Positions 2,718-51,981 of a stretch of DNA of 64,000 nt are shown here, piece after piece (the first letter of the stretch is position 1; the number at the start of each line of letters is the position of its first letter). The stretch spans positions 11,210-75,209 of the forward strand of contig JANNXX010000041.1 in the NCBI GenBank assembly GCA_031409795.1, given 5' to 3'. The notes beneath the pieces were generated by a model. It was not told the origin of the DNA and made no database searches. It worked only from the letters and a program-made list of their open reading frames with translations. The DNA is from Rhodobacterales bacterium. GTDB lineage: Bacteria; Pseudomonadota; Alphaproteobacteria; Rhodobacterales; Rhodobacteraceae. Position numbers and translations under genes: made by a program.

Positions 2718-3645
2718 CGAAGGCCCCCGCGCGTTTGGCAAGCGTCAGATAGACCAGCATGATCAGGATCGGAACCACGGCGAAGGCGGCGGCCAGGGGC
2801 GTGTTCCCGGCGGTGCCCTGCAACTGGTAGACGGCAAGGCCGATGAAGCGGGCGCTGTCGCCGACGATCTGCGGAATGATGTAGTCGCCCAGCGTCAGCG
2901 AGAAGGTGAAGATCGATCCGGCGATCACCCCCGGCATGGCCAGCGGCAGGACCACGGTGCGGAAGGTCTGCGACCGGGTGGCGCCAAGATCGGCCGAGGC
3001 TTCCAGCATCGAGGTCGGCACCCGTTCAAGCGCGGCCTGCATCGGCAGGATCATGTAGGGCAGCCAGACGTAGACAAAGACCAGGAAGGTGCCGAAGGGC
3101 GAGGTGGAGAGGGACGAGCCTTCAAGCCCGGGGATGGCCAGGACGGCGTCGATCAGGAACCCGGTCCCGGTGCCCTCGGCGGCCCAGGTCACGATGCCCT
3201 CCTTCGCGAGAATCAGTTTCCAGGCGTAGACCTTGACCAGGTAGCTGGACCACAAGGGCAGCATGACTCCAAGGTAGAAGGCCGCTTTCCACGGGCCTTT
3301 TGCGTAGCGGGCAGCGTAGTAGGCGATGGGGAAGGCCAGCACGGCGCAGGCCAGGGTTACCGCGGCGGACATCACCACGGTGCGCAGGATGATGTCGAGG
3401 TTCTGGGCGCGAAACAGCTCGGCATAGGTCTTGAGGGTGAACTCTTCCTTCACCACGCCCGAAAACTCGTCGATCGAGTAGAAGCTTTGCAGGAGAAGTG
3501 CGGCAAGCGAGCCCAGATAGACCACGCCCAGCCAGAGAAGCGGCGGGGTGACCAGAAGCAGCAGAAGGACGTTCGGCCGGCGCCAGAAGAGTCCGGTCAG
3601 CCGGTCAGACACGCCACGGGCGGGAAGGATTGCGGGGGCGGTCAA
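2707..3645 (-). CDS. ydcU: Polyamine ABC transporter permease (YdcU/PotB-like); start uncertain (TTG 3645 or GTG 3834)
   Basis: [18 protein letters not shown] loop; FSLTLGDYI motif; permease-like sequence begins at about TTG 3645 ([11 protein letters not shown]). Confidence 0.8.
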
Positions 3646-3665
3646 CGCGGCGCCCCCGGCCCGGA

Positions 3666-3688
3666 AAAATCCTTGAAGGAAGGATTTT
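3666..3688. repeat. Palindrome related to the TTCGAA-core family (family B)
   Basis: AAAATCCTT-GAAGG-AAGGATTTT, inside the ~180 bp insert between the ATPase and permease genes. Confidence 0.55.
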
Positions 3689-3826
3689 GGGCGCCCGGTT
3701 GCAGGAGACGGCCAGCGTTGCCGGGGTCGGAGCCTCTGGCGGGGAAATTTGCGGACGAGGAATGGCGCGGGCTGACCCACATTCTGCGCCCCTTGCAACG
3801 GTCGGGCTGGGCATTGTCGACAGGCA

Positions 3827-4825
3827 TCAGGCACCCCCCATCAGGTGCAGGGCCGAAGGTTCGAAGGCGATTGCGGTCCGCTCGCCTTCGGCAGGGACCG
3901 GCTGGCCCGCCGGGACAAGGGCGGCGATTTCCGTCCCGTCGGCGTCCAGCACCACGCGGGTGCCCGAGCCAAGGTAGCGCAGCGCCGTGACGCGGCCGGT
4001 CACCGGGCCGGTCGCGGCCAGGCGGGTCGCCTCGGGGCGCAGCGAGGCCCAGCTGTCCGGGCCACCAAGCGCGCGGGTCAGGGCCGGCGGCAGTACGTTC
4101 GACGAGCCGACGAAATCGGCGACGAAGCGGGTGGCGGGCCGGTCGTAGATGTCCTGCGGCGAGCCGATCTGGGCGATGCGGCCCTCGTTGAAGACGGCGA
4201 GGTGATCGGCCATCGACAGGGCCTCGTGCTGGTCATGGGTGACGAAGACGAAGGTCAGGCCCAGGCGGTGTTGCAGGGCCTTCAGCTCGTCCTGCATCGC
4301 CTCGCGCAGCTTGAGGTCAAGCGCGCCAAGCGGTTCGTCCAGGAGCAGCACCCGCGGTTCGTTCACCAGCGCCCGGGCCAGGGCGACACGCTGGCGCTGG
4401 CCGCCGGACAGCTGCGCGGGCTTGCGGTCGCCGTAGGCGTCCAGCTTGACCAGGGCAAGCATTTCCTCGGCCTTGGCATGGCGTCTGGCGCGCGGGGTGC
4501 CCTTGACCATCAGCCCATAGGCCACGTTGTCGCGCACGTTCAGGTGCGGAAAGAGCGCGTAGTCCTGAAACACCGTGTTGACGTTGCGCAAATGTGGCGG
4601 GGTGTTCGAGACATCCTCGCCGAAGATGCGGATCTGGCCGCCGGTTGGTTTCTCGAAGCCCGAGATCAGGCGCAGGCAGGTGGTCTTGCCCGACCCGGAC
4701 GGCCCCAGCATGGCGAAGAACGAGCCCTCGGCGATGGTCAGATCGACGCCATCGACGGCCTTCACCGGTGCGGAGGCGGGGCCGAAATGGCGCGAGACGG
4801 AGTGGAAGGTGACGGCAGCGGTCAT
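3827..4825 (-). CDS. ydcT: Polyamine ABC transporter ATP-binding protein (YdcT/PotA-like)
   Basis: Walker A GPSGSGKT, signature LSGGQRQRV, Walker B LLLDE, H-loop; alternative start at 4840. Confidence 0.92.
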
Positions 4826-37240: not shown

Positions 37241-37825
37241 ATGACCAAGCGCCTGTCCATCATCGTGGTCGAGAACGAGCCCGGCCGTGCAAGGACCATC
37301 GTGGACGGCCTGCGCGAAGCGGGCGATCATGACGTGCTGGTGATCGCCGACGAGATCGGCCTTGCGCGACGGATCGCCGAGCGCAATCCGGATCTGGTGC
37401 TGATCGACGCCGGCAACCCCTCACGCGATGCGATCGAAGAGCTGACGCTGGCCAGCGCGCCGCTTCAACGCCCGGTCGCCATGTTTGTCGATGAAAGCGA
37501 TGGCGCGCTGACAAGGACGGCGATCGAGGCCGGGGTCTCGGCCTATGTCGTCGCGGGGCTGGCGTCCAACCGCATCCGGCCGGTCCTTGATGCCGCCTTC
37601 GCGCGGTTCCACATGATGCAGAAGATGCGGGCGGAACTGGCCGAGACCCGCCGCGCGCTGGACGAGCGCAAGATGATCGACCGGGCGAAAAGCATCCTGA
37701 TGCGCGCCAAGGGCATCGGCGAGGACGAGGCCTATGCGCTTATGCGCAAGGCCGCCATGGACCAAAGCCGCAAGCTGGCCGACGTGGCGCAGGCGCTGGT
37801 GACGGCGGCGGAGCTTCTGAAATGA
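37241..37825 (+). CDS. nasT: ANTAR-domain antiterminator NasT
   Basis: Pseudo-receiver domain plus ANTAR (ERKMIDRAKSILM...EDEAYALMRKAAM). Confidence 0.92.
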   Translation: MTKRLSIIVVENEPGRARTIVDGLREAGDHDVLVIADEIGLARRIAERNPDLVLIDAGNPSRDAIEELTLASAPLQRPVAMFVDESDGALTRTAIEAGVSAYVVAGLASNRIRPVLDAAFARFHMMQKMRAELAETRRALDERKMIDRAKSILMRAKGIGEDEAYALMRKAAMDQSRKLADVAQALVTAAELLK

Positions 37826-38988
37826 TGCTGCCGCTGCGTCTGGGCTTTCTGCCGCTGGTCGATGCCGCACCCCTGATTGTCGCCAAGGCCATGGGTTTTG
37901 CCGAGGAAGAGGGTCTGGCTCTTGACCTGATCGCCGCGCCAGGCTGGTCCGCCCTGCGTGACCTTCTGGCGCAGGGGGCCGTGACGGCGGCGCATATGCT
38001 GGCTCCGGTCCCCGTGGCACAGGCGCTGGGCCTGGGCGGCACGGCGCGGTTCGACGTGCTGTCGGTGTTGAACCTGAACGGAAACGCAATCGGCGTGTCA
38101 ATGGCACTGGCCGCGCGCATGCAGGGGCATGACTTCGCGCTGACCGATCCCTGGGTCGCTGGCCGCGCCCTGCTTGCAGCCCGGTCCGACCGGCTGCGGA
38201 TCGGCGTGCCCTTCACCTTTTCCATGCATGCCGAACTGGTGCGCTACTGGCTGGAATGCCTTGCGGATCCCTTGCCCCCTTCGGTCGAGATCGTGACGGT
38301 GCCCCCGGCCCTGATGCCCGAAGCGCTTGCGCTGGGCGAAATCGATGCCTTCTGTGTCGGCGAGCCGCGCGGCTCGGTCGCGGTGGACCGGGGCGCCGGT
38401 GTCCTGCTGCTGCCGACCAGCGCGATCTGGGCGGCGGCGCCGGAAAAGGTGCTGGCGGCGCGCAAGGGCTGGGCCGAGGCCGAACCGGATGCCGCAGGCC
38501 GCCTGATCCGGGCGATCTGGCGGGCAGGTCACTGGCTGGATCAGGGTCAGAACCTGTCGGTCGCCTCGGAGATCCTGTCGAAACCCGCGCATCTTGATCT
38601 GGCACCCGAGATCATCGAGCGCAGCCTGTCCGGGCGGCTGGTGATCTCGGCGGACGGGCAAGAGCGCACCCTTCCCGGCTTCCTGCGCTTTCACGATGGG
38701 GCGGCCGGATTTCCGTGGCGCAGCCAGGCGGCGTGGATCGGAACGCGCCTGGCCGCGCGGCACGGGCTTGACCCGGCGACGGCCGGTCGCCTGGCGGGGG
38801 CGGTGTTCCGCAGCGACCTGTACCGGCTGCATCTTGGTCCGGCCGGAGCCGACATGCCCGCCGCCAGTGCCAAGGTCGAAGGGTCGCTTGCGCTGCCGAC
38901 GCCGGTCGCTTCGTCGCGGGGAAAGCTGATCCTGCCCCCGGACCGCTTTTTCGATGCCCGGATCTTCGACCCTGACCTGCCCGGGTGA
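37822..38988 (+). CDS. nasS: Nitrate sensor NasS (NrtA/CmpA-like, no signal peptide)
   Basis: LGFLPLVDAAPLIVA, AAHML, FSMHAE, FCVGEP, FPWRSQAAW; ATGA-coupled to nasT. Confidence 0.88.
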   Translation: MMLPLRLGFLPLVDAAPLIVAKAMGFAEEEGLALDLIAAPGWSALRDLLAQGAVTAAHMLAPVPVAQALGLGGTARFDVLSVLNLNGNAIGVSMALAARMQGHDFALTDPWVAGRALLAARSDRLRIGVPFTFSMHAELVRYWLECLADPLPPSVEIVTVPPALMPEALALGEIDAFCVGEPRGSVAVDRGAGVLLLPTSAIWAAAPEKVLAARKGWAEAEPDAAGRLIRAIWRAGHWLDQGQNLSVASEILSKPAHLDLAPEIIERSLSGRLVISADGQERTLPGFLRFHDGAAGFPWRSQAAWIGTRLAARHGLDPATAGRLAGAVFRSDLYRLHLGPAGADMPAASAKVEGSLALPTPVASSRGKLILPPDRFFDARIFDPDLPG

Positions 38989-39101
38989 TGAAAAACTGGG
39001 CGCTGCGGTGCAGCGAAGTGAAAATTCCCACTTTTCGCTAGCCTGTCCTGTTCGCGGCAGTTGACGCCGCGCCGCGGCATGACACTCTTGGCTCACGCGC
39101 C

Positions 39102-39200
39102 GAGGCAACGGGGTCTCATCGCGCCTGTCCCCAAATCCGGGAAAGCCGAGCAATGCCGCTCGATCCGACGTCACTTCGACGAGGGATCTTGCGGCTTTTT
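39102..39200 (+). promoter_or_regulatory. ANTAR dual-hexaloop leader with overlapping intrinsic terminator
   Basis: Hairpin 1 GAGGC-AACGGG-GTCTC, hairpin 2 CGAGC-AATGCC-GCTCG (both loops have A1 and G4); terminator GCCGC..GATC...GATC..GCGGC-TTTTT shares the 3' arm of hairpin 2. Confidence 0.85.
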
Positions 39201-39240
39201 CCGTTTCAACGCCGCAGCCAAGGCCACGAGGATCGAACCC

Positions 39241-40599
39241 ATGACGCGCATCTCCGCATTCCTGATCAGCAGCGCTTTGTGCCTGCCCGCCTTCGCCGAA
39301 ACGCCCGGCATCGAAAAGGATGAACTGACCCTGGGCTTCATCAAGCTGACCGACATGGCGCCGCTTGCCGTCGCCAAGGAGAAGGGTTTTTTCGAGGACG
39401 AGGGCCTTTCGGTCACCCTGGTCGCCCAGTCGAACTGGAAGGTTCTTCTGGATGGCGTCGTTTCGGGCGAACTGGACGGGGCGCACATGCTGGCCGGTCA
39501 GCCGATTGCCGCCTCGATCGGCTATGGCACCAAGGCGGCGCTGGTGACGCCATTCTCGATGGACCTGAACGGTAACGCGATCACCGTGTCGAATGCCGTG
39601 TGGGAGGCGATGAAGCCAAACGTCCCGCTGGACGCCGAGGGCAAGCCGCAGCACCCGATCACCGCCGCCGCGCTGAAGCCGGTGGTCGAGGCTTATGCGG
39701 CGGAAGGCACGCCTTTCAACCTGGGAATGGTGTTCCCGGTCAGCACCCACAACTATGAACTGCGCTATTGGCTTGCGGCCGGCGGGATCAACCCCGGCCT
39801 CTACAGCCCGGATGACGTCTCGGGCCAGATCGGCGGCGAAGTGCTGATCTCGGTCACCCCGCCGCCACAGATGCCCGCGACCTTGGAGGCGGGAACGATC
39901 CTGGGCTACGCGGTGGGTGAGCCGTGGAACCAGGCGGCGGTGGCCAAGGGCATCGGTGTGCCGGTGATCACCGACAACGACATCTGGAAGAACAATCCGG
40001 AAAAGGTCTTAGGCCTGACCGCCGAATTCGTCGAGGCTAACCCGCAGACCACGCTGGACCTGACCAAGGCCCTGATCCGCGCGGCGATCTGGCTGGACGA
40101 GAACGACAACGCCAACCGCGCCGAAGCGGTGGAGATTCTGGCGCGCGCCGAATATGTGGGCGCAGATGCGGCAGTCATCGCCAACAGCATGACCGGTACC
40201 TTTGAATTCGAGCCGGGTGACGAGCGCCCCGCCCCCGACTTCAACGTCTTCTTCCGCTACAACGCGACCTTCCCTTATTACTCCGATGCGGTCTGGACCC
40301 TGACCCAGATGCGCCGCTGGGGGCAGATCGCCGAGGCCAAGCCTGACAGCTGGTATGACGAGACGGCAAAGTCGGTCTACAAGCCCGACATCTACAAGCT
40401 GGCCGCCGAGGCGCTGATCGCGGACGGCAAGGCCACGGCCGAGATGTTCGACTTTGACGCCGACGGCTACCGCGAGCCGACCGCCGAGTTCATCGACGGC
40501 ATCGCCTATGACGGCAAGACCCCCAACGCCTATATCGACAGCCTGCCGGTCGGCCTGAAGGGCGACCAGACGGTCGTCGCGGGCGAAGTGACGAATTGA
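39241..40599 (+). CDS. nrtA: Nitrate/nitrite ABC transporter substrate-binding protein
   Basis: Signal peptide; [38 protein letters not shown]. Confidence 0.93.
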
Positions 40600-40610
40600 G
40601 GGGTGGGCTG

Positions 40611-41693
40611 ATGACCATGATCCAGTCCGCTTTGCCCGTGCAGCCCGCGACTCCGGACCGGCGACCAACCCGGTTTCCCGCCTTCATCGGCAAGGCCGAC
40701 CCCTGGTTCCGGGCGCTGGGTCTGGCCTGGCTGACGCCGATCCTGCGCATCCTGTCCGGCGAGGCGCCGCGCGCGCAACTCAAGGATCTGTGGCGTCTTC
40801 TTGTGGTGCCGTTGCTGGCCATCATGGCCTTCCTGGCACTTTGGGCCTGGGCCGCGCCAAAGGTGCAGACGTCGCTTGGCGCGATCCCCGGCCCGGCGCA
40901 GGTGTGGGAGCAGGCGGGCATCCTGCACGCCGATGCCCTGGCAGCCCGTCAGAAAGAGGCCGAGTTCTACGCAGCGCAGGCCGAAAAGAACGCGGGTCTG
41001 GTGGCCGAAGGCAAGGCTGACAAGGTCAAGGACCGCGCCTACACCGGCAAGCCGACCTATTATGAACAGATCTTCACATCAATCCGCACGGTGTTCTTCG
41101 GCTTTGTGCTGGCGACGCTGGTGGCGGTGCCCTTGGGCATCCTGTCCGGCATGTCGGCTACGGCGAATGCCGCGCTGAATCCGCTGGTGCAGATCTTCAA
41201 GCCGGTCTCGCCGCTGGCCTGGCTGCCGATTGTCACCATGGTCGTCTCGGCCGCCACTGTCGGCGACGGGGCGATGTCGAAAAGCTTTGTGATTTCGGCG
41301 GTGACGGTGACGCTGTGTTCACTTTGGCCGACGCTGATCAACACCGCGTTGGGCGTGGCCAGCATCGACAAGGACTTGGTGAACGTGGGCCGGGTTCTGA
41401 AGCTTTCGACCTGGACCAAGATCACCCGGCTGGTCCTGCCCTCGGCTTTGCCGCTGATCTTTACCGGCCTGCGACTGTCGCTGGGCGTGGGCTGGATGGT
41501 ACTGATCGCGGCGGAAATGCTGGCGCAGAACCCGGGCCTTGGCAAGTTCGTCTGGGACGAGTTCCAGAACGGATCCGAACAGTCGCTGGCCCGCATCATG
41601 GTGGCGGTCTTCACCATCGGCATCATCGGCTTTCTTCTGGACCGGGTGATGTTCGCCTTGCAGCAGGCCTTTACCTTCAGCGGAAAGCGGTGA
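40611..41693 (+). CDS. nrtB: Nitrate ABC transporter permease
   Basis: FKPVSPLAWLPI, WPTLINTALG, IFTGLRLSLGVGWMVLIAAEML. Confidence 0.93.
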   Translation: MTMIQSALPVQPATPDRRPTRFPAFIGKADPWFRALGLAWLTPILRILSGEAPRAQLKDLWRLLVVPLLAIMAFLALWAWAAPKVQTSLGAIPGPAQVWEQAGILHADALAARQKEAEFYAAQAEKNAGLVAEGKADKVKDRAYTGKPTYYEQIFTSIRTVFFGFVLATLVAVPLGILSGMSATANAALNPLVQIFKPVSPLAWLPIVTMVVSAATVGDGAMSKSFVISAVTVTLCSLWPTLINTALGVASIDKDLVNVGRVLKLSTWTKITRLVLPSALPLIFTGLRLSLGVGWMVLIAAEMLAQNPGLGKFVWDEFQNGSEQSLARIMVAVFTIGIIGFLLDRVMFALQQAFTFSGKR

Positions 41694-41697
41694 CGCG

Positions 41698-43341
41698 ATG
41701 GGCATTCTGGACCTCAAGGGCGTGTCCAAGGGCTATGGCGCGACGCCCGTGCTGAAGCGGCTGGACCTGACCGTCGAGGATGGCGAGTTTCTGGCGATCC
41801 TCGGGTTTTCCGGCACCGGCAAGACCACGCTGATCAACCTTCTGGCCGGGCTGGAGCTGCCGGATGCGGGGCAGGTGCTGTTCCGTGGCCAGCCGGTGAC
41901 CGGGCCGGGGCCGGAGCGCGGGCTGGTGTTCCAGTCCTATGCGCTGATGCCCTGGCTGACCGTGGCGGGCAACATTGCCCTGGCTGTTGACGCGGTGTCG
42001 CAAGGCTCACGCGCCGAACGGGCGGCGCTGGTGGCAAAGTATATCGGCATGGTTGGCCTTGCCCATGCCGCCGACCGCCGTCCGGCAGAACTGTCAGGCG
42101 GGATGCGGCAGCGGGTGGCCGTGGCGCGGGCGCTGGCGATGCAGCCCGACGTGCTGTTGATGGACGAACCGCTGTCCGCCCTGGACGCGTTGACCCGGGC
42201 AAATGTGGCCTCCGAGATCGAGGCGATCTGGGCCGCCGAAAAGCGCACCGTTATCCTCGTCACCAATGACGTGGATGAGGCGCTGGTGCTGGCCGACCGC
42301 ATCCTTTGCCTGAATCCCGATGGCACGCTTGGGGCTGCGTTCAAGGTCGACCTCCCGCGCCCGCGCGACCGGTCTGCGATGAACGATGACCCGGCCTTCA
42401 AGACCCTGCGGGCCGAAGTCACGGCCTACCTGATGGACGTCGGCATCAGGGGCAAGGTTGACGGCACGCGCCTGCTGCCCGCCGTCACCCCGCGCCACGC
42501 CTTGCCCCGCGCCTATGCCGAAGCCGCGCGCAGTGCGACCGACGATCGCTATCTGCAGTTCTCGCAACTGCACAAGGTCTATGCCACGCCGAAAGGGCCG
42601 CTGACCGTGGTGAAGGATTTCAACCTGACCCTGAAGAAGGGCGAGTTCGTCAGCCTCATCGGCCATTCCGGCTGCGGCAAGTCCACCGTGCTGACCATGG
42701 CGGCTGGGCTGAACGACATCTCTAAAGGTGCGATCAAGCTGGACGGGCTGCACGTCGAGGGGGCGGACCCGGAACGGGCGGTGGTCTTCCAGTCGCCGTC
42801 GCTGTTCCCATGGCTGACCGCCCGCGAGAACGTGGCGATCGGGGTGGACCGGGTCTATCCCAAGGCCACTCAGGCCGAGCGGCAGGATGTGGTGGAGTAT
42901 TATCTGGAGCGGGTGGGGCTGGCAGATGCCATGCACAAACCCGCCGCCGAGCTTTCCAACGGCATGAAGCAGCGCGTGGGTATTGCAAGGGCCTTTGCCC
43001 TGTCACCGAAACTGCTGCTGCTGGATGAACCTTTCGGGATGCTGGACAGCCTGACCCGGTGGGAGCTGCAGGAAGTGCTGATGGAGGTCTGGTCGCGCAC
43101 GCAAGTGACCGCGATCTGTGTCACCCATGACGTGGATGAGGCGATCCTTCTGGCCGACCGCGTGGTGATGATGACCAACGGCCCCGAGGCGACCATCGGC
43201 AAGATCACCGAGGTGAACCTGCCCCGCCCCCGCACTCGCCGCGCGCTATTGGATCACGCCGACTACTGGCACTACCGGGCCGAGGTGCTGGGCTTTCTGG
43301 AATCGCACGACCACGGCGCGAAGAAGACGGAGGCCGCGTGA
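41698..43341 (+). CDS. nrtC: Nitrate ABC transporter ATPase with two fused ABC domains (NrtC/NrtD-like)
   Basis: Two Walker A (GFSGTGKT, GHSGCGKS), two signatures (LSGGMRQR, LSNGMKQR), two Walker B motifs. Confidence 0.92.
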   Translation: MGILDLKGVSKGYGATPVLKRLDLTVEDGEFLAILGFSGTGKTTLINLLAGLELPDAGQVLFRGQPVTGPGPERGLVFQSYALMPWLTVAGNIALAVDAVSQGSRAERAALVAKYIGMVGLAHAADRRPAELSGGMRQRVAVARALAMQPDVLLMDEPLSALDALTRANVASEIEAIWAAEKRTVILVTNDVDEALVLADRILCLNPDGTLGAAFKVDLPRPRDRSAMNDDPAFKTLRAEVTAYLMDVGIRGKVDGTRLLPAVTPRHALPRAYAEAARSATDDRYLQFSQLHKVYATPKGPLTVVKDFNLTLKKGEFVSLIGHSGCGKSTVLTMAAGLNDISKGAIKLDGLHVEGADPERAVVFQSPSLFPWLTARENVAIGVDRVYPKATQAERQDVVEYYLERVGLADAMHKPAAELSNGMKQRVGIARAFALSPKLLLLDEPFGMLDSLTRWELQEVLMEVWSRTQVTAICVTHDVDEAILLADRVVMMTNGPEATIGKITEVNLPRPRTRRALLDHADYWHYRAEVLGFLESHDHGAKKTEAA

Positions 43342-43348
43342 TGGGGGG

Positions 43349-43633
43349 CTATTCGGCGGCGTGGCGGGCGGATTTCGCCAGATCCTCTAGCATTTCGGCA
43401 GCCCTTTCCAGGAAGCCGGGCTTTCCGGGGGACAGCGGCAGGAACATCGCTCGGTCTATGCCACGCGAATCGACATCGCGCAGAAACTCTGCACGGCGGA
43501 GCATGAAATCGTGGACGCTGACGATATCGCCGCCGAAGTCTTGGCTCTTGACCGACCAAGCCCATTCTTCGCGCGTCGGTGTACGGGCTTCGCCATCGTC
43601 ATCGATCAGTGGGGTAGTCTTTCTCTGTGCCAT
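43349..43633 (-). CDS. Putative antitoxin, divergent BrnA-like
   Basis: Overlaps the brnT 3' end; N-terminal PLIDDDGEAR resembles BrnA N-termini; C-terminus only weakly similar. Confidence 0.6.
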   Translation of the reverse strand: MAQRKTTPLIDDDGEARTPTREEWAWSVKSQDFGGDIVSVHDFMLRRAEFLRDVDSRGIDRAMFLPLSPGKPGFLERAAEMLEDLAKSARHAAE

Positions 43634-43886
43634 ATTCCCTTATCTCACGTCGGTTCGCTTTCCTCAACGAAATGATGCGCAGGCGCGTGTAGCGCCAGGT
43701 GTAGATGCAGACGTGAAGGCGCGCGCCAAGCATGGCGTAGCGTGCAACCCGGCCCTCTCCATAGACGAATCGGTCGTCCGAAACCTCGGTGCCAGTTACC
43801 CAATCCAGGCGCATCGCATCAGCCAGCGACAGCCCGTGTTTGGCCCGGTTCACCCTGTCCTTCGCCTCATCCCATTCAAACTCCAT
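43599..43886 (-). CDS. brnT: BrnT-family ribonuclease toxin (DUF497)
   Basis: MEFEWDEAK..N.AKHGLS.A, DDR..YGE.R, RIISLRKAN hallmark motifs. Confidence 0.9.
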   Translation of the reverse strand: MEFEWDEAKDRVNRAKHGLSLADAMRLDWVTGTEVSDDRFVYGEGRVARYAMLGARLHVCIYTWRYTRLRIISLRKANRREIREYGTEKDYPTDR

Positions 43887-43951
43887 GCCGCCCACCCTAC
43901 CCGCGACGTGGTTAAGCAAATGTTGTCCTACGGGCGGATGGAGGCTCTCGC

Positions 43952-46375
43952 ATGAGACTGGTTGTCATCGGGGCCGGCATGGCCTCGGGTCGGATGCTGG
44001 AGCATCTGTTCGACGCGGGGTTTGCCGGTCAGGTCACGCTCTTCAACGGCGAGCCTCGGGGGAATTACAACCGCCTGATGCTGTCGCCGGTCCTGTCGGG
44101 CGAGAAGACCTACGCTGACATCATCACCCATGACGAGGACTGGTACGCCGAAAAGGGCGTGCAGTGCCGCTTTGGCGAACATGTGACCAAGATCGACCGG
44201 GACCGGAAGGTCGTGCTCAGCAAGGGCGGCGAGACGCCCTATGACGCGCTGGTGATCGCGACGGGATCGGCGCCGTTCATCATTCCGGTGGCGGGCAAGG
44301 ACCTGCCGGGCGTCTGCACCTACCGCGACCTTGAGGATACCAACGCGATGATTGCGGCATCCGCGCCGGGGGCAAAGGCGGTGGTCGTCGGCGGGGGCCT
44401 GCTGGGGCTGGAGGCGGCGGCAGGCATGGCGGCGCGGGGGGCGGAGGTGACGGTGATCCACCTGATGGGCCACCTGATGGAGCGGCAGCTTGACCCCTCG
44501 GCAGGGTATCTGCTGCAGAAGGACCTGGAACGCCGGAGCATCCGCATCCACTGCAAAGGGGCGACGAAGGCGATCCTTGGCAACGGCAAGGTCGAGGCGG
44601 TGCTGCTGGAGGACGGCACGATCTATGACGCCGATCTGGTCTGCATGGCCGTGGGCATCCGGCCGGAAATCCGCATCGCAACCGACGCGCATCTGGAGAT
44701 CGGGCGCGGGGTGGTGGTCAACGACCGGATGCAGACCAGCGACCCGGCGATCTGGGCGCTGGGGGAATGTGTCGAGCATGAAAAGCAGCTCTTCGGGCTG
44801 GTGGCACCCCTCTACGATCAGGCGAAGGTGCTGGCCTCCAGCCTGATGGGACAGGAAGCGGCCTTCAGGCCGGTGCAAACCGCGACCAAGCTGAAGGTCA
44901 CGGGCGTCGACCTGTTCAGCGCGGGCGACTTTGCCGACGGGCCGGGGCGCGAGGACATCGTGTTCCGCGATCCGGGGCGCGGGGTCTACAAGCGGCTGGT
45001 GCTGGAGGGTGACCGGCTGGTCGGCGCGGTCATGTATGGCGACACCGGCGACGGGGCCTGGTTCTTCGACAAGATCAAGACCGGAGAGGACGTGTCGGCG
45101 CTGCGCGACACGCTGATCTTCGGCCCGGCCTTTGCTGCGGGGGGGGCCCAGGCGGACCCTCTGGCAGCCGTTGCAGCCTTGCCGCCTGAGGCGGAAATCT
45201 GTGGCTGCAACGGCGTCTGCAAAGGGAAGATCATCACGGCAGTTGAAGGCGGTGCGGCCACGCTGGATGCGGTCCGCGCCCAGACCAAGGCCAGCTCAAG
45301 CTGCGGCACCTGCACCGGGCTGGTGGAAAAGGTCATGGCGCTGACGCTGGGCGAAAGCTTTGCCGCCAATGCCAATCCGCCGATGTGCAAATGCACCGAC
45401 CACACGCATGAAGACGTGCGGCGGCTGATCAAGGCAGGTGGGCTGAAAAGCATTCCGGCGGTGATGCAGGACCTGGGCTGGAAGACGGTGGGGGGCTGCG
45501 CCAGCTGCCGTCCGGCGCTGAACTACTACCTTCTGTCCGACTGGCCGCTGGACTATGCCGATGACCGGCAAAGCCGCTTCGTGAATGAACGCAACCACGC
45601 CAACATCCAGAAGGACGGCACCTATTCGGTGGTCCCTCGCATGTGGGGCGGGGTGACGACCTCGGCGGAACTGCGGGCGATTGCCGATGCGGCCGACCGC
45701 TACGGGGTGCCGATGATCAAGGTGACCGGCGGCCAGCGGATCGACCTGCTGGGGGTGAAAAAGCAGGACCTTCCGGGCATCTGGGCCGATTTCAACGCCG
45801 CCGGCATGGTGTCGGGCCATGCCTATGCCAAAGGCCTGCGCACGGTGAAGACCTGTGTCGGGTCCGAATTCTGCCGCTTCGGCACGCAGGATTCGACGGG
45901 GCTTGGGATCCGGCTGGAAAAGCTGCTCTGGGGGTCCTGGACCCCGGCGAAGGTCAAGCTGGGCGTCTCTGGCTGCCCCCGCAACTGTGCCGAGGCGACC
46001 TGCAAGGATATTGGCGTGGTCTGTGTCGACAGCGGCTATCAGATCAGCGTCGCCGGGGCGGCAGGGATGGATGTGAAGGAGACAGAACTTCTCTGCACCG
46101 TCCCGACCGAAGACGAGGCGATGGAGGTGATCGCGGCCTTCGTCCAGCTCTACCGCGAGAACGCGCGCTATCTGCACCGGATCTACAAATGGGTGGCGAA
46201 GGTCGGGCTTGACTGGTGCAAGGACCAGATTGCCGACACCGAAATCCGCCGGGCGCTGCGGGACCGTTTCCTGCAAAGCCAGGCGGTCTACCAGACCGAT
46301 CCCTGGGCTGATCTGGCGGAACGGCCTGCGGACTGGGCCCCGATTGCCGACCTGACGCTGAGGGCCGCCGAATGA
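43952..46375 (+). CDS. nirB: Assimilatory NAD(P)H nitrite reductase large subunit
   Basis: FAD site GAGMAS, NAD site GGGLLGLE, BFD-like CGCNGVC clusters, siroheme/4Fe-4S CVGSEFC and GCPRNC. Confidence 0.96.
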   Translation: MRLVVIGAGMASGRMLEHLFDAGFAGQVTLFNGEPRGNYNRLMLSPVLSGEKTYADIITHDEDWYAEKGVQCRFGEHVTKIDRDRKVVLSKGGETPYDALVIATGSAPFIIPVAGKDLPGVCTYRDLEDTNAMIAASAPGAKAVVVGGGLLGLEAAAGMAARGAEVTVIHLMGHLMERQLDPSAGYLLQKDLERRSIRIHCKGATKAILGNGKVEAVLLEDGTIYDADLVCMAVGIRPEIRIATDAHLEIGRGVVVNDRMQTSDPAIWALGECVEHEKQLFGLVAPLYDQAKVLASSLMGQEAAFRPVQTATKLKVTGVDLFSAGDFADGPGREDIVFRDPGRGVYKRLVLEGDRLVGAVMYGDTGDGAWFFDKIKTGEDVSALRDTLIFGPAFAAGGAQADPLAAVAALPPEAEICGCNGVCKGKIITAVEGGAATLDAVRAQTKASSSCGTCTGLVEKVMALTLGESFAANANPPMCKCTDHTHEDVRRLIKAGGLKSIPAVMQDLGWKTVGGCASCRPALNYYLLSDWPLDYADDRQSRFVNERNHANIQKDGTYSVVPRMWGGVTTSAELRAIADAADRYGVPMIKVTGGQRIDLLGVKKQDLPGIWADFNAAGMVSGHAYAKGLRTVKTCVGSEFCRFGTQDSTGLGIRLEKLLWGSWTPAKVKLGVSGCPRNCAEATCKDIGVVCVDSGYQISVAGAAGMDVKETELLCTVPTEDEAMEVIAAFVQLYRENARYLHRIYKWVAKVGLDWCKDQIADTEIRRALRDRFLQSQAVYQTDPWADLAERPADWAPIADLTLRAAE

Positions 46376-46707
46376 GTGCCATGATCGACATCGCCGCGCT
46401 TGACGACATTCCGCGGCAGGGCGCGCGGGTGGTGAAGACCGACGCGGGCTGTGTGGCGGTGTTCCGCACGGCGGACGATCAGGTCTTCGCGCTGGAGGAT
46501 CGCTGTCCGCACAAGGGCGGCCCGCTGTCCGAAGGCATCGTCCACGGCACGCAGGTCACCTGCCCCTTGCATGCCTGGGTCTTCGATCTTGCGACCGGGC
46601 AAGCAGAGGGCGCTGATGCAGGCAGTGTGCAGACCTATCCGGCGCGGACGGACGGCGGGCGGGTGTTTCTGGACGCGACCTTCCTTCTCAGCCGGTCGGC
46701 GGCGTGA
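46372..46707 (+). CDS. nirD: Nitrite reductase small (Rieske) subunit
   Basis: CPHKGGPLSEG and CPLH Rieske motifs. Confidence 0.95.
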   Translation: MSAMIDIAALDDIPRQGARVVKTDAGCVAVFRTADDQVFALEDRCPHKGGPLSEGIVHGTQVTCPLHAWVFDLATGQAEGADAGSVQTYPARTDGGRVFLDATFLLSRSAA

Positions 46708-49442
46708 CCCTGGCCAGCCCCCCCACCCCATCCCTCCCCCACAGCGGGGGGAGGGAGGCGCATCCGTATGGCGGCAGGACGGGCATCCGGTCGACCTGCC
46801 CCTATTGCGGGGTGGGCTGCGGGGTGGTCCTGACGCCGGACGGGACGGGTGGGTTGTCCGTGCAGGGCGACCCCGACCATCCTGCGAATTTCGGGCGGCT
46901 TTGTTCCAAAGGCTCGGCGCTGGGCGAGACGGTCGGCCTGGGCGGGCGGCTGCTGGCCCCCCGCGTCTTCGGGCAGGAGGTGGGCTGGGCGGCGGCGCTG
47001 GACGTGGTGGCCAGACGCTTTGCCAAGACGATTGCCGATCACGGGCCGGATGCGGTGGCGCTTTACGTCTCGGGCCAGTTGCTGACCGAGGATTACTACG
47101 TCGCCAACAAGCTGGCCAAGGGCTTCTGGGGCACCGCGAACATCGACACCAATTCGCGGCTTTGCATGGCCTCGTCGGTTGCGGGGCATCGGCGGGCCTT
47201 CGGGTCGGACACGGTTCCGGGCCTCTATGAGGATCTGGAGCAAGCCGATCTCGTGGTCCTTGTCGGGTCGAACCTGGCCTGGTGCCATCCGGTCCTTTAC
47301 CAGCGCCTTGCTGCCGCCAAGGCCGCCCGGCCCGCGCTGAAGGTGGTCGTCATCGACCCCCGTCGCACCGCCACCTCCGAGATCGCGGACCTGCACCTTG
47401 CCATCGCCCCCGGCGGCGACATCGCCCTTTTCAACGCGCTTCTGGCCCGGATCGAGGCGGGCGGCCATGCTGATCCCGCTTTTCTGGCCCATGTCAGCGG
47501 GGCCGGGGCCGCCTTCGCCGCCGCCCGCGCGACCGATCCAGCCGGATCCGGGATCTCCAGCCCCGACCTGGGCGCGTTTCTTGATCTCTGGACCGGGACG
47601 GAACGGGTCGTCACCGTCTATTCGCAAGGCGTGAACCAGTCCGCGCAGGGCACCGACAATGTCAATGCGATCCTGAACTGCCACCTTGCCACCGGGCGGA
47701 TCGGCCGTCCCGGCATGGGGCCGTTCAGCGTGACGGGCCAGCCGAACGCCATGGGCGGGCGCGAGGTTGGCGGGCTGGCCAACATGCTGGCCTGCCACCT
47801 TGAGATCGAGAACCCGTCGCATCGCCAGGCAGTGCAGGACTTCTGGCAATCGCCTGCGATCCCAGAGAAACCGGGCCTAAAGGCGGTAGACATGTTCCGT
47901 GCTGTCGCCGACGGGCGGATCAAGGCGATCTGGATCATCCACACCAACCCGGTCGTGTCGATGCCCGAGGCTGATCTGGTGGCCCGCGCGCTGCAAGCCT
48001 GCCCCCTTGTCGTGGTGCAGGACATCACTGCCGCGACCGATACCGCCCGGCTGGCCCATATCCTTCTGCCCGCAACCGCCTGGGCCGAAAAATCCGGCAC
48101 TGTCACCAATTCCGAACGCCGGATCAGCCGCCAGCGTGCCGCCCTTCCCGTGCCGGGGCAGGTGCGGGATGACTGGCGCATCCTGGCCGGGGTCGCGGGC
48201 CGCATGGGCTGGGGCGCGGCCTTTGCCTGGGACGGCCCGGCAGAGATCTTTGCCGAACACGCAGCCCTGTCCGGGGTGGCAGGCGGGTTGGGCAGTGATT
48301 TCGACATTTCCGACTACGCGGGGATCGGTCCGGCGGACTATGATGCCTTGCAGCCCTTCCTCTGGCCCGCAAACCCGCGCCAGCGGGGCGGGCGGTTCTT
48401 TGGCGGGGGCCGGTTCCATACCCCGGACGGCAAGGCCCGGATGCTGGCGGTCTCGCCGCCCGCGCCCTCTGCGGACCCAGCGCCGTTCCGGTTGAACACC
48501 GGGCGCATCCGCGACCAGTGGCACACGATGACGCGCAGCGGCAAAAGCCCGCGCCTGTCGGTACATCTGGCCGAACCCTTTCTGGAGCTGCACCCGGCCG
48601 ACGCCGCGCGGCTGACCCTTGCCCCCGCCGATCTGGTCGAGGTGGAAAGCCCGCTTGGCCACGCGATCCTGCGGGTGCTGGTCACCGACCGCGTTGCGCC
48701 GGGACACCCTTTCGCGCCGATGCACTGGACCGGAGAGACCGCACCTTCGGGGCGCATCGACGCGCTGGTCGCGGCCAATCCCGATCCGGTCTCGGGCCAG
48801 CCCGACAGCAAGGCCGCCCCGGTCGCGCTGCGCCGGTTTGCTGCGGGCTGGTTCGGCTTTGCCGTCGCAAGCGCCGATTTCCGCCCCGATTGCGACTATT
48901 GGGCCAAGGCACGCACCGCCGGGGGATGGCGGGCCGAACTGGCCGGGCGCGCCGTGCCGGGGGACTGGGAAGCACAGGCCCGCAGGCTGTTCGGTCTGCC
49001 GAACGCCGAAGCGGCGACCGTGATCGACCGGACCCGGGGCCTGGCCCGGATCGCGTTTCACGCCGAGGGGCGGCTTCTGGCGGCACTGTTCGTCGGACCC
49101 GACCCCGTCGCCCTGGCCCGTGACCAGCTTGCCGCGCGTCTGGCCGGGCAACCGGGCTCGGATGCGCCGCATGAGGCTTTGTCCGGGCGTGCGCGGTCAG
49201 GCCGCCCGGACCCCGGACCTACGGTCTGCGCCTGTCTGAATATCGGGTTGAACACCCTCCGCCAGGCCATCGAAGGCCGCCAGGTGCTGTCCGTCGCCGC
49301 GCTGGGCGAGGCCTTGGGTGCCGGAACCTCTTGCGGGTCCTGCCGACCCGAACTGGCAGCCCTGATCCGGCGGTTCGGGCCGGTCGGGGACCAGCCAGCA
49401 CCAGCCGCGTCGCGCGACCAGTGCGCCGAGCCGCTGCTCTGA
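46704..49442 (+). CDS. nasA: Assimilatory nitrate reductase catalytic subunit (Mo-bisPGD)
   Basis: TCPYCGVGCG...C 4Fe-4S; DTNSRLCM; GQPNAMGGRE; TGRIRDQWHTM; C-terminal BFD-like CAC...CGSC. Confidence 0.95.
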   Translation: MTLASPPTPSLPHSGGREAHPYGGRTGIRSTCPYCGVGCGVVLTPDGTGGLSVQGDPDHPANFGRLCSKGSALGETVGLGGRLLAPRVFGQEVGWAAALDVVARRFAKTIADHGPDAVALYVSGQLLTEDYYVANKLAKGFWGTANIDTNSRLCMASSVAGHRRAFGSDTVPGLYEDLEQADLVVLVGSNLAWCHPVLYQRLAAAKAARPALKVVVIDPRRTATSEIADLHLAIAPGGDIALFNALLARIEAGGHADPAFLAHVSGAGAAFAAARATDPAGSGISSPDLGAFLDLWTGTERVVTVYSQGVNQSAQGTDNVNAILNCHLATGRIGRPGMGPFSVTGQPNAMGGREVGGLANMLACHLEIENPSHRQAVQDFWQSPAIPEKPGLKAVDMFRAVADGRIKAIWIIHTNPVVSMPEADLVARALQACPLVVVQDITAATDTARLAHILLPATAWAEKSGTVTNSERRISRQRAALPVPGQVRDDWRILAGVAGRMGWGAAFAWDGPAEIFAEHAALSGVAGGLGSDFDISDYAGIGPADYDALQPFLWPANPRQRGGRFFGGGRFHTPDGKARMLAVSPPAPSADPAPFRLNTGRIRDQWHTMTRSGKSPRLSVHLAEPFLELHPADAARLTLAPADLVEVESPLGHAILRVLVTDRVAPGHPFAPMHWTGETAPSGRIDALVAANPDPVSGQPDSKAAPVALRRFAAGWFGFAVASADFRPDCDYWAKARTAGGWRAELAGRAVPGDWEAQARRLFGLPNAEAATVIDRTRGLARIAFHAEGRLLAALFVGPDPVALARDQLAARLAGQPGSDAPHEALSGRARSGRPDPGPTVCACLNIGLNTLRQAIEGRQVLSVAALGEALGAGTSCGSCRPELAALIRRFGPVGDQPAPAASRDQCAEPLL
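46718..46759 (+). repeat. REP-like palindrome (family A) in frame inside the nasA N-terminus
   Basis: CCCCCCCACCCCA-TCCCTCCCCC-ACAGCG-GGGGGAGGGA-GGC, encoding PPTPSLPHSGGRE. Confidence 0.8.
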
Positions 49443-49482: not shown

Positions 49483-51981
49483 TCAGCCATCCAGCCGGAT
49501 GCGCGCGTTCGTGGGGTCGAAGGGGCTGTCTTCGGTCACGACCGCATCCCATTCCTGCAACTGCATCTTGACCTTGAGCTTCTGCCCCGGTTCCGCAAGG
49601 GCCACCGGGACATAGCCCATGCCGATCTGCTTGCCGAAAGCCACCGAGTACCCGCCAGAGGTCAGGCGCCCGACCTTCACCCCGTCATGGATCAGCGCCT
49701 CCTTGCCCCAGGGGTCGGCGTCCGCCGGGCCGTCGATCAGCAGGGTGACGCATTTGCTGCGGATGCCGGTGTCCAGCATCTTCTGCTTGCCGCGGAAATC
49801 TTTCGTCAGGTCGACGAAGCGGTCAAGCGCGGCTTCCAGCGGCGTCGCATCGCGGCCAAGCTCGTTGCCGAAGGCGCGGTAGGATTTTTCCTGCCGCAGC
49901 CAGTTCTGCGCCCGGGCCCCGACGGGTTTCAGGCCGTGGTCTGCCCCGGCCTTGAGGATGAGGTCCCAGAGGTAGCGCCCGAATTCGATGGGATAGTGCA
50001 GCTCCCAGCCAAGCTCGCCCGTGTAGGCCACGCGGATCGCGCGGACCGGGCACATGCCCAGTTCGATGTCGCGATACGACAGCCAGGGGAAGCGCTTGTT
50101 GGAAAGAACCGTCTCGGGGTCGCGGTCCTTGACGATGTCTTTGAGAAGCGCGCGGGCATTCGGCCCGGCCAGCGCATAGACGCCCCACTGGGTAGTGATG
50201 TCGTGGATGTCGATTGCGCCTTTGCCTGCGGCCATCCAGTCATCGGCGGATTTCTGCAGGAAATCATAGTCATAGGTCGTCCAGGCCCCGGCTGAGATCA
50301 GGTAGTACTCATCCTGCTTCAGCCGGACGATGGTGTATTCGGTGCGGGTGGTGCCGTGGTCGGTCAGGGCATAGGTCAGGTTGATCCGACCGACATTCGG
50401 CAGCTTGTTGCAGGTGAAATGGTCCAGGAACGCCGTCGCCCCCGGCCCCCGGACAAGGTGCTTGGTGAAGGCAGAAGCGTCGATGATGCCGACAGTGTTG
50501 CGCACCGCTTCGGCTTCGGCCTTGGCATAGGGCCACCACGCGCCGCGCCGGAAGCTGCGGGAGTTGTGGTCGAAATCGGCGGGGGCGTCGGTCGGGCCAT
50601 AGTAGTTGGGCCGTTCCCAGCCGTTCACCTGCCCCATCTGCGCGCCAAGGTCTTTCTGTCGGTCATAGGCGGGGGCGGTGCGCAAGGGGCGGCAGGCCTC
50701 ACGCTCTTCGTCCGGGTGGTGCAGGATGAAGACGTGGTCGTAGCATTCCTCATTCTTGCGCGAGGCGTATTCGGTCGTCATCCAGTTGCCGAAGCGCTTG
50801 GGGTCGAGGGAGGCCATGTCAATCTCGGCCTCGCCTTCGGTCATCAGTTGCGCAAGGTAGTGGCCGGTGCCGCCTGCCGCCGTGATGCCGAACGAAAATC
50901 CCTCGGCCAGCCACATGTTGCGCAGGCCGGGGGCGGGGCCAACGAGGGGGTTGCCATCGGGGGTATAGCAGATCGGGCCGTTGTAATCGTCTTTGAGGCC
51001 CACGGTTTCCGAACTGGGCAGGCGGTGGATGAAGGACATGTATTCCTGCTCGATCCGCTCAAGGTCCAGCGGGAAGAGGTCAGCGCGGAAGCTTTCGGGC
51101 ACCTCATAGGGGAAGCGGGCCGGGGCACCTTTTTCGTATGGCCCAAGGATCCAGCCGCCGCGTTCCTCGCGCACATACCACTTGGCATCGGCGTCGCGCA
51201 GGACCGGGTGCTGCGGGTTGGTCTTGCGCCATTCGACAAGGGCGGGGTCGGGTTCGGTCACGATATACTGGTGCTCGACCACCACGGCGGGGGTCTTGAT
51301 CCCCAGCAGCCGCGCGGTGCGCTGGGCGTGGTTGCCGGTGGCGGTGACGACATGTTCGGCGGTGATGTCGAAACGGTCATCGCTGGCGACAAGGTTGCCG
51401 CCCTGTTCCACCATGCGGGTGCAGGAGACGATCCACTCGGATCCGGTCCAGCGGTAGCCGTCGACCTGCACCTTGCGCTCGAAGGTGCAGCCGAACTGCC
51501 GCGCGCCCTTGGCCATCGCCTGCGTCACGTCCGCCGGATTGATGTAGCCGTCCTGCGGGTGATAGAGCGCGCCGATCAGGTCATCGGTGCGCAAAAGCGG
51601 CCAGCGGTCTTTCATTTCCTTCGGCGTCAGAAACTCATGGTAGACCCCGGCGGTTTCCGCGACCGAGGAATACAGCATGTACTCGTCCATCCGCTGCTGA
51701 TGCTGCGCCATCCGCAGGTTGCCGACGACATAGAAACCGGGGTTGAGACCGGTTTCCGCCTCCAGCCCCTTGTAGAAATCGACGCTGTACTTGTGGATGT
51801 GGGTCGTCGCGTAAGACATGTTGAACAAGGGCAACAGCCCCGCCGCGTGCCACGTCGACCCCGCCGTCAGCTCGTCCCGCTCGACCAGCATCGTGTTCCA
51901 GCCCGCCTTGGCCAGATGATAGGCAATCCCTGTGCCGACCGCGCCGCCACCGACAACAAGGGCTTTGACATGGGTTTTCAT
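49483..51981 (-). CDS. GcvT-family FAD-dependent amine dehydrogenase (dimethylglycine/sarcosine dehydrogenase-like)
   Basis: GGGAVG FAD site; GSTWHAAG covalent-FAD His motif; YTPDGNP; GWERP; C-terminal aminomethyltransferase fold (YTGELGWE). Confidence 0.9.
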   Translation of the reverse strand: MKTHVKALVVGGGAVGTGIAYHLAKAGWNTMLVERDELTAGSTWHAAGLLPLFNMSYATTHIHKYSVDFYKGLEAETGLNPGFYVVGNLRMAQHQQRMDEYMLYSSVAETAGVYHEFLTPKEMKDRWPLLRTDDLIGALYHPQDGYINPADVTQAMAKGARQFGCTFERKVQVDGYRWTGSEWIVSCTRMVEQGGNLVASDDRFDITAEHVVTATGNHAQRTARLLGIKTPAVVVEHQYIVTEPDPALVEWRKTNPQHPVLRDADAKWYVREERGGWILGPYEKGAPARFPYEVPESFRADLFPLDLERIEQEYMSFIHRLPSSETVGLKDDYNGPICYTPDGNPLVGPAPGLRNMWLAEGFSFGITAAGGTGHYLAQLMTEGEAEIDMASLDPKRFGNWMTTEYASRKNEECYDHVFILHHPDEEREACRPLRTAPAYDRQKDLGAQMGQVNGWERPNYYGPTDAPADFDHNSRSFRRGAWWPYAKAEAEAVRNTVGIIDASAFTKHLVRGPGATAFLDHFTCNKLPNVGRINLTYALTDHGTTRTEYTIVRLKQDEYYLISAGAWTTYDYDFLQKSADDWMAAGKGAIDIHDITTQWGVYALAGPNARALLKDIVKDRDPETVLSNKRFPWLSYRDIELGMCPVRAIRVAYTGELGWELHYPIEFGRYLWDLILKAGADHGLKPVGARAQNWLRQEKSYRAFGNELGRDATPLEAALDRFVDLTKDFRGKQKMLDTGIRSKCVTLLIDGPADADPWGKEALIHDGVKVGRLTSGGYSVAFGKQIGMGYVPVALAEPGQKLKVKMQLQEWDAVVTEDSPFDPTNARIRLDG

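Follow-up and report, generated by a model that had tools for sequence, protein, structure and literature searches.

We identified a toxin-antitoxin (TA) cassette of the BrnT family lying antisense within the nitrate-assimilation (nas) operon of a Rhodobacterales bacterium, in a window of 64,000 nucleotides (nt) that covers positions 11,210 to 75,209 of contig JANNXX010000041.1 (GenBank GCA_031409795.1) and supplies the coordinates used below. On the plus strand the genes run nasT-nasS-nrtABC-[TA]-nirBD-nasA, and the TA pair occupies the opposite strand in the nrtC-nirB gap. Opposite the cassette, the operon strand carries an open reading frame (ORF) of 204 codons plus a stop (43341-43955, plus strand), which is antisense to the whole cassette and joins the end of nrtC to the start of nirB. 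The reading we favour, at a probability of roughly 0.55, is that of a non-contiguous operon in which this bridging ORF would be translated, keeping nirB coupled to nrtC and preventing Rho-dependent polarity.

The toxin gene, brnT (43599-43886, minus strand), is the first of a bicistron, and its 3' end overlaps the start of the antitoxin gene (43349-43633, minus strand) by 35 nt. The antitoxin stop is separated from the nrtC stop by 7 nt (43342-43348) and the brnT ATG from the nirB ATG by 65 nt, so that the opposite-strand inner genes lie, with small gaps, between co-directional genes of one functional unit, which is the layout of a non-contiguous operon. The GC content of the nrtC-nirB gap is 0.61, compared with 0.66 in nrtC and nirB, and GC at third codon positions is 0.67-0.69 in the cassette and 0.84 in the two flanking genes. 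A consensus scan of both strands from 42800 to 44500 found neither a sigma70-consensus promoter nor an intrinsic terminator, an Rfam scan of 38900-44300 gave no match, and no transposase or integrase is present in the gap, which leaves too little room for a transposase. The initial annotation of this DNA, made from the sequence alone, had already described a pair nearly filling the gap on the opposite strand, locally low GC (29 of 60 nt at 43621-43680), no terminator and no transposase, and its distances and counts are exact.

The bridging ORF overlaps its operon neighbours at both ends: TGATG (43339-43343) joins the nrtC stop to the ATG of the ORF, and ATGA (43952-43955) joins the nirB ATG to the TGA of the ORF. 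The start is preceded at 7 nt by a GGAGG Shine-Dalgarno (SD) sequence (43329-43333, plus strand) that matches the nirB SD of cassette-free relatives, and the region is the one that serves as the initiation region of nirB in genomes without the cassette. A second GGAGG (43940-43944, plus strand), contributed by the right end of the cassette, is the SD of nirB. The frame is open, with the same start geometry, in all 12 complete cassettes at the nirB site, and none of the 12 contains a stop in this frame. In a tandem double cassette of about 1.27 kb (L168), the open frame extends to 1305 nt, including a 137-nt spacer; an extra 80-nt spacer in L176 is likewise open in the bridging frame, and in L107 the frame is open at a GC content of 0.53 beside a dead toxin gene. 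The operon-strand RNA across the cassette had initially been regarded as antisense RNA alone; this description is incomplete, since the same strand carries a conserved ORF that is predicted to be coupled to its neighbours.

The relative registers of the three frames allow stop avoidance to be examined separately in the two TA genes. Opposite brnT, the codons of the bridging frame are in antisense alignment with those of the toxin gene, and only TTA, CTA or TCA codons can produce a stop. Opposite the antitoxin gene the frame is offset, which leaves Tyr following a pyrimidine-ending codon and His or Gln following a T-ending codon as the sole sources of stops. We used these patterns as a reciprocal control over the 12 cassettes, comparing each pattern in the gene where it would create a stop (constrained) with the same pattern in the other gene (free), with one-sided p-values. 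TTA, CTA and TCA codons number 0/124 in constrained brnT and 8/131 in the free antitoxin gene (p = 0.004), Tyr follows a pyrimidine-ending codon in 0 of 3 cases in the constrained antitoxin gene and 29 of 42 in free brnT (p = 0.04), and His or Gln follows a T-ending codon in 0 of 35 and 8 of 57 cases, respectively (p = 0.018). Combined by Fisher's method in a hand calculation that ignores shared ancestry, these values give approximately 3e-4. Tyr is nearly missing from the antitoxins (3 of 1144 residues, compared with 42 of 1120 in brnT). On these counts, each TA gene avoids only the patterns that make stops in its own register relative to the bridging frame. Over all cassettes, the proteins and host codon usage together lead to an expectation of 5.6-7.8 stops, and none was observed.

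Similar embedding was found in other operons. Four Rhizomicrobium-type genomes carry BrnT with a canonical BrnA (PF14384) antisense in an NMT1-type ATP-binding cassette (ABC) transporter operon, in the order substrate-binding protein-ATPase-[BrnT/canonical BrnA]-permease, and their operon-strand ORFs of 218-242 amino acids (aa) have an ATG on the ATPase stop and a stop on the permease start, with 4-nt overlaps at both ends. A Rhodocyclaceae metagenome-assembled genome (MAG; L224) has an antisense BrnTA pair in the order liuB-liuC-[BrnTA]-liuD, where liuC encodes enoyl-CoA hydratase and liuD the methylcrotonyl-CoA carboxylase alpha subunit; there the ORF begins 1 nt after the liuC stop and finishes 5 nt past the liuD ATG. 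These loci are independent replicas of the design of the nas cassette. The bridging frame is not open in BrnTA pairs that lie at least 200 nt from co-directional flanking genes, nor in L005 and L014, the closest non-embedded sisters of the Rhizomicrobium cassette.

These features can be combined in a model of how the nas operon could accommodate the cassette. A type II BrnT-family TA cassette, toxin gene first, lies antisense between nrtC and nirB of a non-contiguous operon, and its mRNA, probably leaderless, would arise from the cassette's own promoter in the 65-nt right end. The host operon would stay functional, with the operon strand across the cassette kept as a single open reading frame. 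On finishing nrtC, ribosomes would re-initiate at the ATG on the nrtC stop, which, together with the SD before it, formerly served nirB. They would then read across the cassette, some 204 codons with no message of their own, and stop at the nirB ATG (ATGA) beside the new SD, and translational coupling from nrtC to nirB would be preserved. Rho-dependent polarity is expected in alphaproteobacteria. Over the cassette the operon-strand RNA contains more C than G (skew -0.054, compared with +0.05 to +0.115 in the flanking genes), and a C-rich, G-poor stretch at 43790-43880 (plus strand; excess of C over G of +0.2 to +0.28 per 78 nt) would resemble a Rho-utilisation (rut) site if left untranslated, its composition being that expected of Rho-utilisation sites and of antisense RNA generally. 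Translation would shield this C-rich, antisense-type RNA from Rho-dependent termination, and we infer that the bridge is needed against polarity and for expression of nirBD-nasA. For the cassette itself, the simplest view is that of an addiction module, selfish or stabilising, whose presence the operon tolerates.

The identification of the toxin as BrnT is well founded. The 95-aa product matches Pfam PF04365, of the RelE/ParE-superfamily RNases, at 63.9 bits (cutoff 34.5; E = 1.8e-17) over profile positions 1-77 of 77, which exceeds chance similarity and bears out the original assignment, and it resembles a solved toxin (PDB 7vd7_A, E = 5.5e-5). Its ATG lies at 43886 and its stop at 43599. In the TA frames, third codon positions show about double the differences of the first and second (position 1/2/3 = 1107/1132/1991, given for the toxin), a pattern indicating that the two TA genes are evolving as minus-strand coding sequences under purifying selection. 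In L107, brnT (3651-3938, minus strand) is interrupted in frame by a stop at codon 29, a Trp codon in the other cassettes, and the antitoxin and bridging ORF beside it are intact.

The partner of BrnT is more unusual. The 94-aa antitoxin, described from its ORF, a family profile and an AlphaFold2 (AF2) model, belongs to a rare, nas-specific family ending in Ala-Ala-Glu (AAE). The window protein had no match in Pfam, NCBIfam, PADLOC or PDB, and the hidden Markov model (HMM) of the BrnA family, PF14384, matched neither this protein nor any of the 34 family members (E<=10). In the BrnT pair initially proposed, the toxin stands, but its partner cannot be recognised as BrnA. The antitoxin has no recognisable ribbon-helix-helix (RHH) or helix-turn-helix motif, and its AF2 model, which is confident (predicted local distance difference test score of 91.5) and consists entirely of helices, gave no Foldseek match in PDB. 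Alignment against 23 canonical BrnAs by hhalign yielded a weak match to the RHH region (probability 6.9%, E = 0.005), in which GIDR..FLP..PGKPGF.ER of the antitoxin is paired with LRLD..FK..GPGWQGRIN of BrnA; the C-terminal RHH DNA-binding domain of BrnA is marked by G-Y/W-Q-x-R-I-N. The N-terminal acidic BrnA toxin-binding motif, PDEENPEWT.E.F, is clear in distant family members P0040-P0050 (as GVPDEENPEWT.EDF) and degenerate in the window antitoxin (PLIDDDGEARTPTREEWAW). The antitoxin is probably a strongly diverged BrnA, despite failing the family HMM. It is predicted to neutralise the toxin and to autoregulate the TA operon, given the purifying selection on both genes and the conserved palindrome upstream of them. 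Irrespective of the residues before it, Ala-Ala-Glu-stop closes each of the 34 aligned antitoxins and most of the more distant members, and the constraint could potentially act on the protein (as a degron?) or on the DNA or RNA. On the operon strand, the AAE end (43349-43360) reads as Y/H-S-A-A near the start of the bridging ORF.

The 65-nt right end contains the likely expression signals of the cassette. A -10-like hexamer, TAGGGT (the complement of 43894-43899; minus strand), lies 7 nt before the brnT ATG, exactly where it had first been noted, with a leaderless transcript suggested. A hexamer of the form NAnnnT is found at exactly this distance in 11 of 11 cassettes, with A2 and T6 invariant and the other positions variable, and none of the 11 has a conserved SD before brnT. 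Because of the fixed spacing, the two invariant bases and the lack of a conserved SD, the brnT mRNA is probably leaderless. Ten nucleotides upstream of the hexamer, GGTTAAGC (43910-43917) is an imperfect copy of the conserved palindrome GGTTAACC, a putative operator-like element and candidate TA operator. Inspection of the right end for sigma54 or -35 motifs found none that is convincing. RNA runs matching the cassette of L006, a more distant copy, were rejected as evidence of expression, only conserved words being shared.

The cassette belongs to a rare family with a constant neighbour. A profile search with the antitoxin recovered 35 proteins among 5.8e9, an exhaustive HMM search with the same profile recovered 30 among 1.84e9 cluster representatives, and a profile scan of metagenome contigs gave no match. 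Wherever the contig of a member could be retrieved, the cassette is antisense and directly 5' of nirB within a nas cluster (L083, L091, L107; P0033, P0015, P0013, P0021, P0032, P0014, P0004, P0029; L006, P0040, P0046), so the insertion is not the isolated event it had been taken for. L006 occupies the same site in the isolate Rhodobacterales HKCCE2091. The upstream gene varies, being usually nrtC, with a major facilitator superfamily (MFS) transporter in one clade and a GAF-domain gene in L006; nirB is the constant neighbour of the family, in a lineage that, from the contigs retrieved, is confined to Paracoccaceae-type nas operons. We also surveyed the nrtC-nirB junction in 80 nirB loci from species-representative genomes, in line with an earlier suggestion that the insert be sought in related strains. 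At most of these loci the nrtC stop overlaps or abuts the nirB start, and the empty sites carry TGATG or ATGA stop-start overlaps. The closest relatives (L081 and L082; NirB 90%, NrtC 93%) lack the cassette and have nothing between the overlapping nrtC stop and nirB start, which agrees with the view of the pair as an extra element in a tightly coupled operon, and a homologous antisense pair occupies the same gap in three surveyed genomes (L083, L091 and L107). An empty allele (joint 43295->43959) from a relative about 90% identical co-occurs with the window allele in the same sediment metagenomes, and the metagenome DNA contigs show nothing beyond this co-occurrence. Sliding-window identity of nrtC and nirB between carriers and non-carriers showed no step near the cassette; the relatives are all about 80-90% identical, and vertical descent with loss and allele exchange are therefore inseparable. 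Searches around the cassette found no terminal inverted repeats. A 9-nt direct repeat, CGGGCGGAT (at 43365 and 43931), was discarded as a mobility signature, as it is not conserved in other cassettes.

Several observations weigh against a translated bridge. In one cassette (L170), the bridging ORF stops about 20 nt before the nirB ATG and not on it. For the window alone, the probability of an open frame is approximately 0.45-0.55 with the TA proteins and GC-rich codon usage taken into account, which makes its openness unremarkable. That antisense frame is intrinsically stop-poor across BrnTA pairs: 16 of 54 canonical-BrnA pairs with a GC content of at least 0.55, including some that are apparently not embedded, have it fully open, as do 5 of about 40 other BrnTA pairs. 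The 12 cassettes may represent only about five deep types, and the stop-avoidance statistics ignore this shared ancestry; the start and stop overlaps of the nas clade could likewise derive from one ancestral event. A search of RNA runs found none that holds the window cassette, and a nirB promoter inside the cassette may exist despite the clean consensus scan.

The alternative that fares best, though we consider it rather unlikely, is one of regulatory coupling, in which NasT-dependent, nitrate-induced read-through would collide and pair with the TA transcript, lower antitoxin synthesis and tie BrnT activity, and with it slower growth or persistence, to nitrogen status. In the other direction, transcription of the TA genes could reduce nirBD-nasA expression below that of nrtABC. 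It is compatible with a translated bridge. The convergent layout without terminators would suit it, as would the conserved promoter-like hexamer and palindrome in the right end, and the fact that the cassette stays with nirB while the gene upstream changes hints that its position may not be accidental. Such a mode of action is seen in non-contiguous operons and, as far as the abstracts describe them, in the phage systems Tha and Tai (PMC11034616, PMC11087260, PMC11364771). Against this, the closest relatives assimilate nitrate with the same operon in the absence of the cassette, the toxin is broken in L107, activation of a toxin upon nitrate use would have no obvious benefit, and the RNA search noted above retrieved no run with the cassette.

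A second alternative, to which we give somewhat less credence, is a neutral selfish insertion, whereby the long ORF would be a by-product of GC-rich antisense frames and shared descent, and nirB would be expressed through untranslated read-through or a promoter in the cassette. The probability of an open frame per locus is approximately 0.3-0.8 under synonymous resampling with proteins and host codon usage fixed, some 12-30% of the other BrnTA pairs have this frame open, and the nas cassettes share ancestry. Such an insertion would not account for the reciprocal, frame-specific avoidance of stop-making patterns in both genes, or for frames that remain open through the double cassette and its spacer in L168, the additional spacer in L176 and the low-GC cassette with a dead toxin in L107. 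It is also at odds with the recurrence of start-on-stop and stop-on-start geometry in two unrelated operons and with the closed frames of loosely flanked and sister pairs.

It is improbable that the cassette is primarily an anti-phage TA acting by abortive infection, with an incidental location in nas. Some RelE/ParE-superfamily TA modules do act in defence (PMC11980606), and the deep cassette types and presence/absence polymorphism would fit such a role, whereas the cassette matches no PADLOC model, its neighbourhood is not a defence island, and an incidental site would leave the operon junction shared by all members unexplained. That the operon-strand ORF is a true antisense overlapping gene encoding a functional protein of about 204 aa in the nas operon is very improbable, for although it is conserved, is placed like an operon gene and has a good SD and ATG, its codon position 1 falls on the most variable position of brnT, substitution patterns track the minus-strand frames, and its Ser/Arg/Ala/Pro-rich product, which shows little conservation from one cassette type to another, matches nothing in Pfam or PADLOC.

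Returning to the translated bridge, a broader generalisation can be put forward tentatively, and we hold it to be possible at best: BrnTA cassettes could include a class of 'stealth' operon invaders that settle antisense at overlapping stop-start junctions and carry, or soon acquire, a full-length host-strand ORF as a translated bridge against Rho polarity, leaving transcription and translation of the host operon coupled. The nas clade would have co-evolved with nirB for long enough to develop a distinct antitoxin, and it might act as a gate that sets nitrite-reductase expression against the activity of the toxin. Non-contiguous operons (of the Staphylococcus aureus menE-menC/MW1733 type) and excludons have, like the nas locus, one or more opposite-strand genes between co-directional related genes. 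In those systems, transcription of the operon should yield RNA antisense to the inner gene, each interfering with the other; at the nas locus, interference between nas and TA transcription would follow the same logic. An atlas of non-contiguous operons lists TA systems among their inner genes, and in that literature transcription must traverse an untranslated stretch, a tolerance put down to Gram-positive uncoupled 'runaway transcription' (PMC11034616). The host of the nas operon is alphaproteobacterial, so this explanation is unavailable to it. In contrast to the untranslated stretch described there (PMC11034616), the operon strand over the inner genes of the nas locus is a conserved ORF that is predicted to be coupled. 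Searches of the accessible literature turned up no earlier account of a TA pair in nas operons or of a bridging ORF.

Other known systems share parts of this arrangement. The phage defence genes Tha and Tai likewise form a toxic or defensive module that is antisense in a host unit and can be silenced by its expression; they differ in lying in a prophage late operon and in encoding other proteins, and their abstracts mention no bridging ORF (PMC11087260, PMC11364771). BrnT/BrnA of Brucella abortus (Heaton et al., 2012, as cited in PMC11980606) also has a PF04365 toxin first and an overlapping downstream antitoxin, and BrnA shares the N-terminal motif GVPDEENPEWT.EDF with the distant members of the nas antitoxin family, whereas the nas antitoxin fails PF14384, ends in AAE and is dedicated to one operon junction.

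Non-contiguous operons pose the problem of how transcription survives a long antisense and supposedly untranslated stretch, a problem that is sharpest under Rho-dependent polarity, and the loci described here suggest a testable answer, which is to keep the stretch translated. Three independent natural replicas (nas, ABC transporter and liu) and a cultured carrier, Rhodobacterales HKCCE2091, open this idea to experiment. The nas cassettes also provide a new antitoxin type for BrnT and a TA family known from a single junction in a single metabolic operon and nowhere else. So narrow a distribution is unusual among TA modules and makes the family useful for exploring the purpose of chromosomal TAs. 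Chromosomal TA cassettes, such as those of superintegrons, stabilise neighbouring DNA. Superintegron TA cassettes are likewise small, lack mobility genes of their own and lie among dispensable genes, where they could penalise deletions; unlike them, the nas cassette has no attC or integron context and is antisense, inside an operon, at a stop-start junction. Possible roles in nitrogen physiology include tying toxin activity to nitrogen status, tuning nirB or stabilising the nas cluster.

The nas genes of the window, all on the plus strand, were assigned by family matches, and these agree with the nitrate-assimilation operon recognised initially as the host. They comprise nasT (37241-37825), a response-regulator/ANTAR antiterminator gene (PF03861, E = 8.7e-20) whose stop overlaps the start of nasS; nasS (37822-38988), which encodes an NMT1_2 nitrate/nitrite sensor-like protein (PF13379, E = 5.8e-58); nrtA (39061-40599), for the binding protein of the nitrate ABC transporter (PF13379, NMT1_2); nrtB (40596-41693), for its permease (PF00528); and nrtC (41698-43341; TGA at 43339-43341), for its fused double ATPase (TIGR01184, E = 4e-174). 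Downstream of the cassette are nirB (43952-46375; TIGR02374; ATG at 43952), nirD (46372-46707; Rieske domain match) and the nitrate reductase gene nasA (46704-49442; molybdopterin-family match), the three being joined by overlapping stop and start codons. With an ANTAR-type nasT, nasS, a nitrate transporter, nirBD and nasA all present, this is an assimilatory nitrate operon of the NasS/NasT-regulated type. The cluster is bordered by a pheT-like ORF (phenylalanyl-tRNA synthetase beta subunit; 35003-37075, plus strand) and a dimethylglycine/sarcosine-dehydrogenase-like ORF (49483-51981, minus strand), both identified from their translations alone.

Further observations concern BrnTA pairs in general and individual cassettes. 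In the analysed pairs with a called partner among BrnT loci L001-L080 and BrnA loci L181-L260, the overlap of toxin end and antitoxin start has a constant frame relation, with few outliers. One antisense frame consistently has the fewest stops, and this holds for AT-rich cyanobacterial copies as well (5-6, compared with 8-12). This stop-poor frame may be a family-wide legacy of antisense embedding or a mere effect of codon structure. In the Sulfuritalea MAGs L185, L188 and L190, BrnTA adjoins a gene of HlyD-like type, and behind that gene an antisense ORF, about 500 aa long, crosses the TA pair and continues for about 950 nt; it has no Pfam match and is not interpretable. The metagenomic contig L168 (reverse-complement 1161-2429) holds two different cassette types in tandem, and the spacer between them contains the promoter-like end of the first cassette and a remnant of an SD and ATG, which suggests repeated insertion at, or recombination across, one stop-start junction. 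L091/L161 (CP059262.1) is a 4.26-Mb MAG labelled Exiguobacterium profundum that carries a Paracoccaceae-type nas operon with 86-87% protein identity to the window, and the label looks wrong. L091 has one G fewer in a G-run than the near-identical L173-L175, and homopolymer errors in this assembly are probable at the G-run of the bridging-ORF start and in the first nirB codons.

The nrtC-nirB junction also receives other cargo. A GAF-domain protein of 311-324 aa is encoded there on the operon strand (L119, approximately 3048-3983; L138, approximately 3023-3973; L006, 6549-7523, minus strand), with a PF13185 match for L006, to which L119 and L138 were likened by eye. Three Rhodobacterales genomes have a single-domain globin between nrtC and nirB (L151, 3519-3995; L157, approximately 223-648; L158, approximately 3544-3990; PF00042, scanned in L151 only), which recalls the nitric oxide-detoxifying haemoglobin linked to nitrate assimilation in Bradyrhizobium (PMC4724949).

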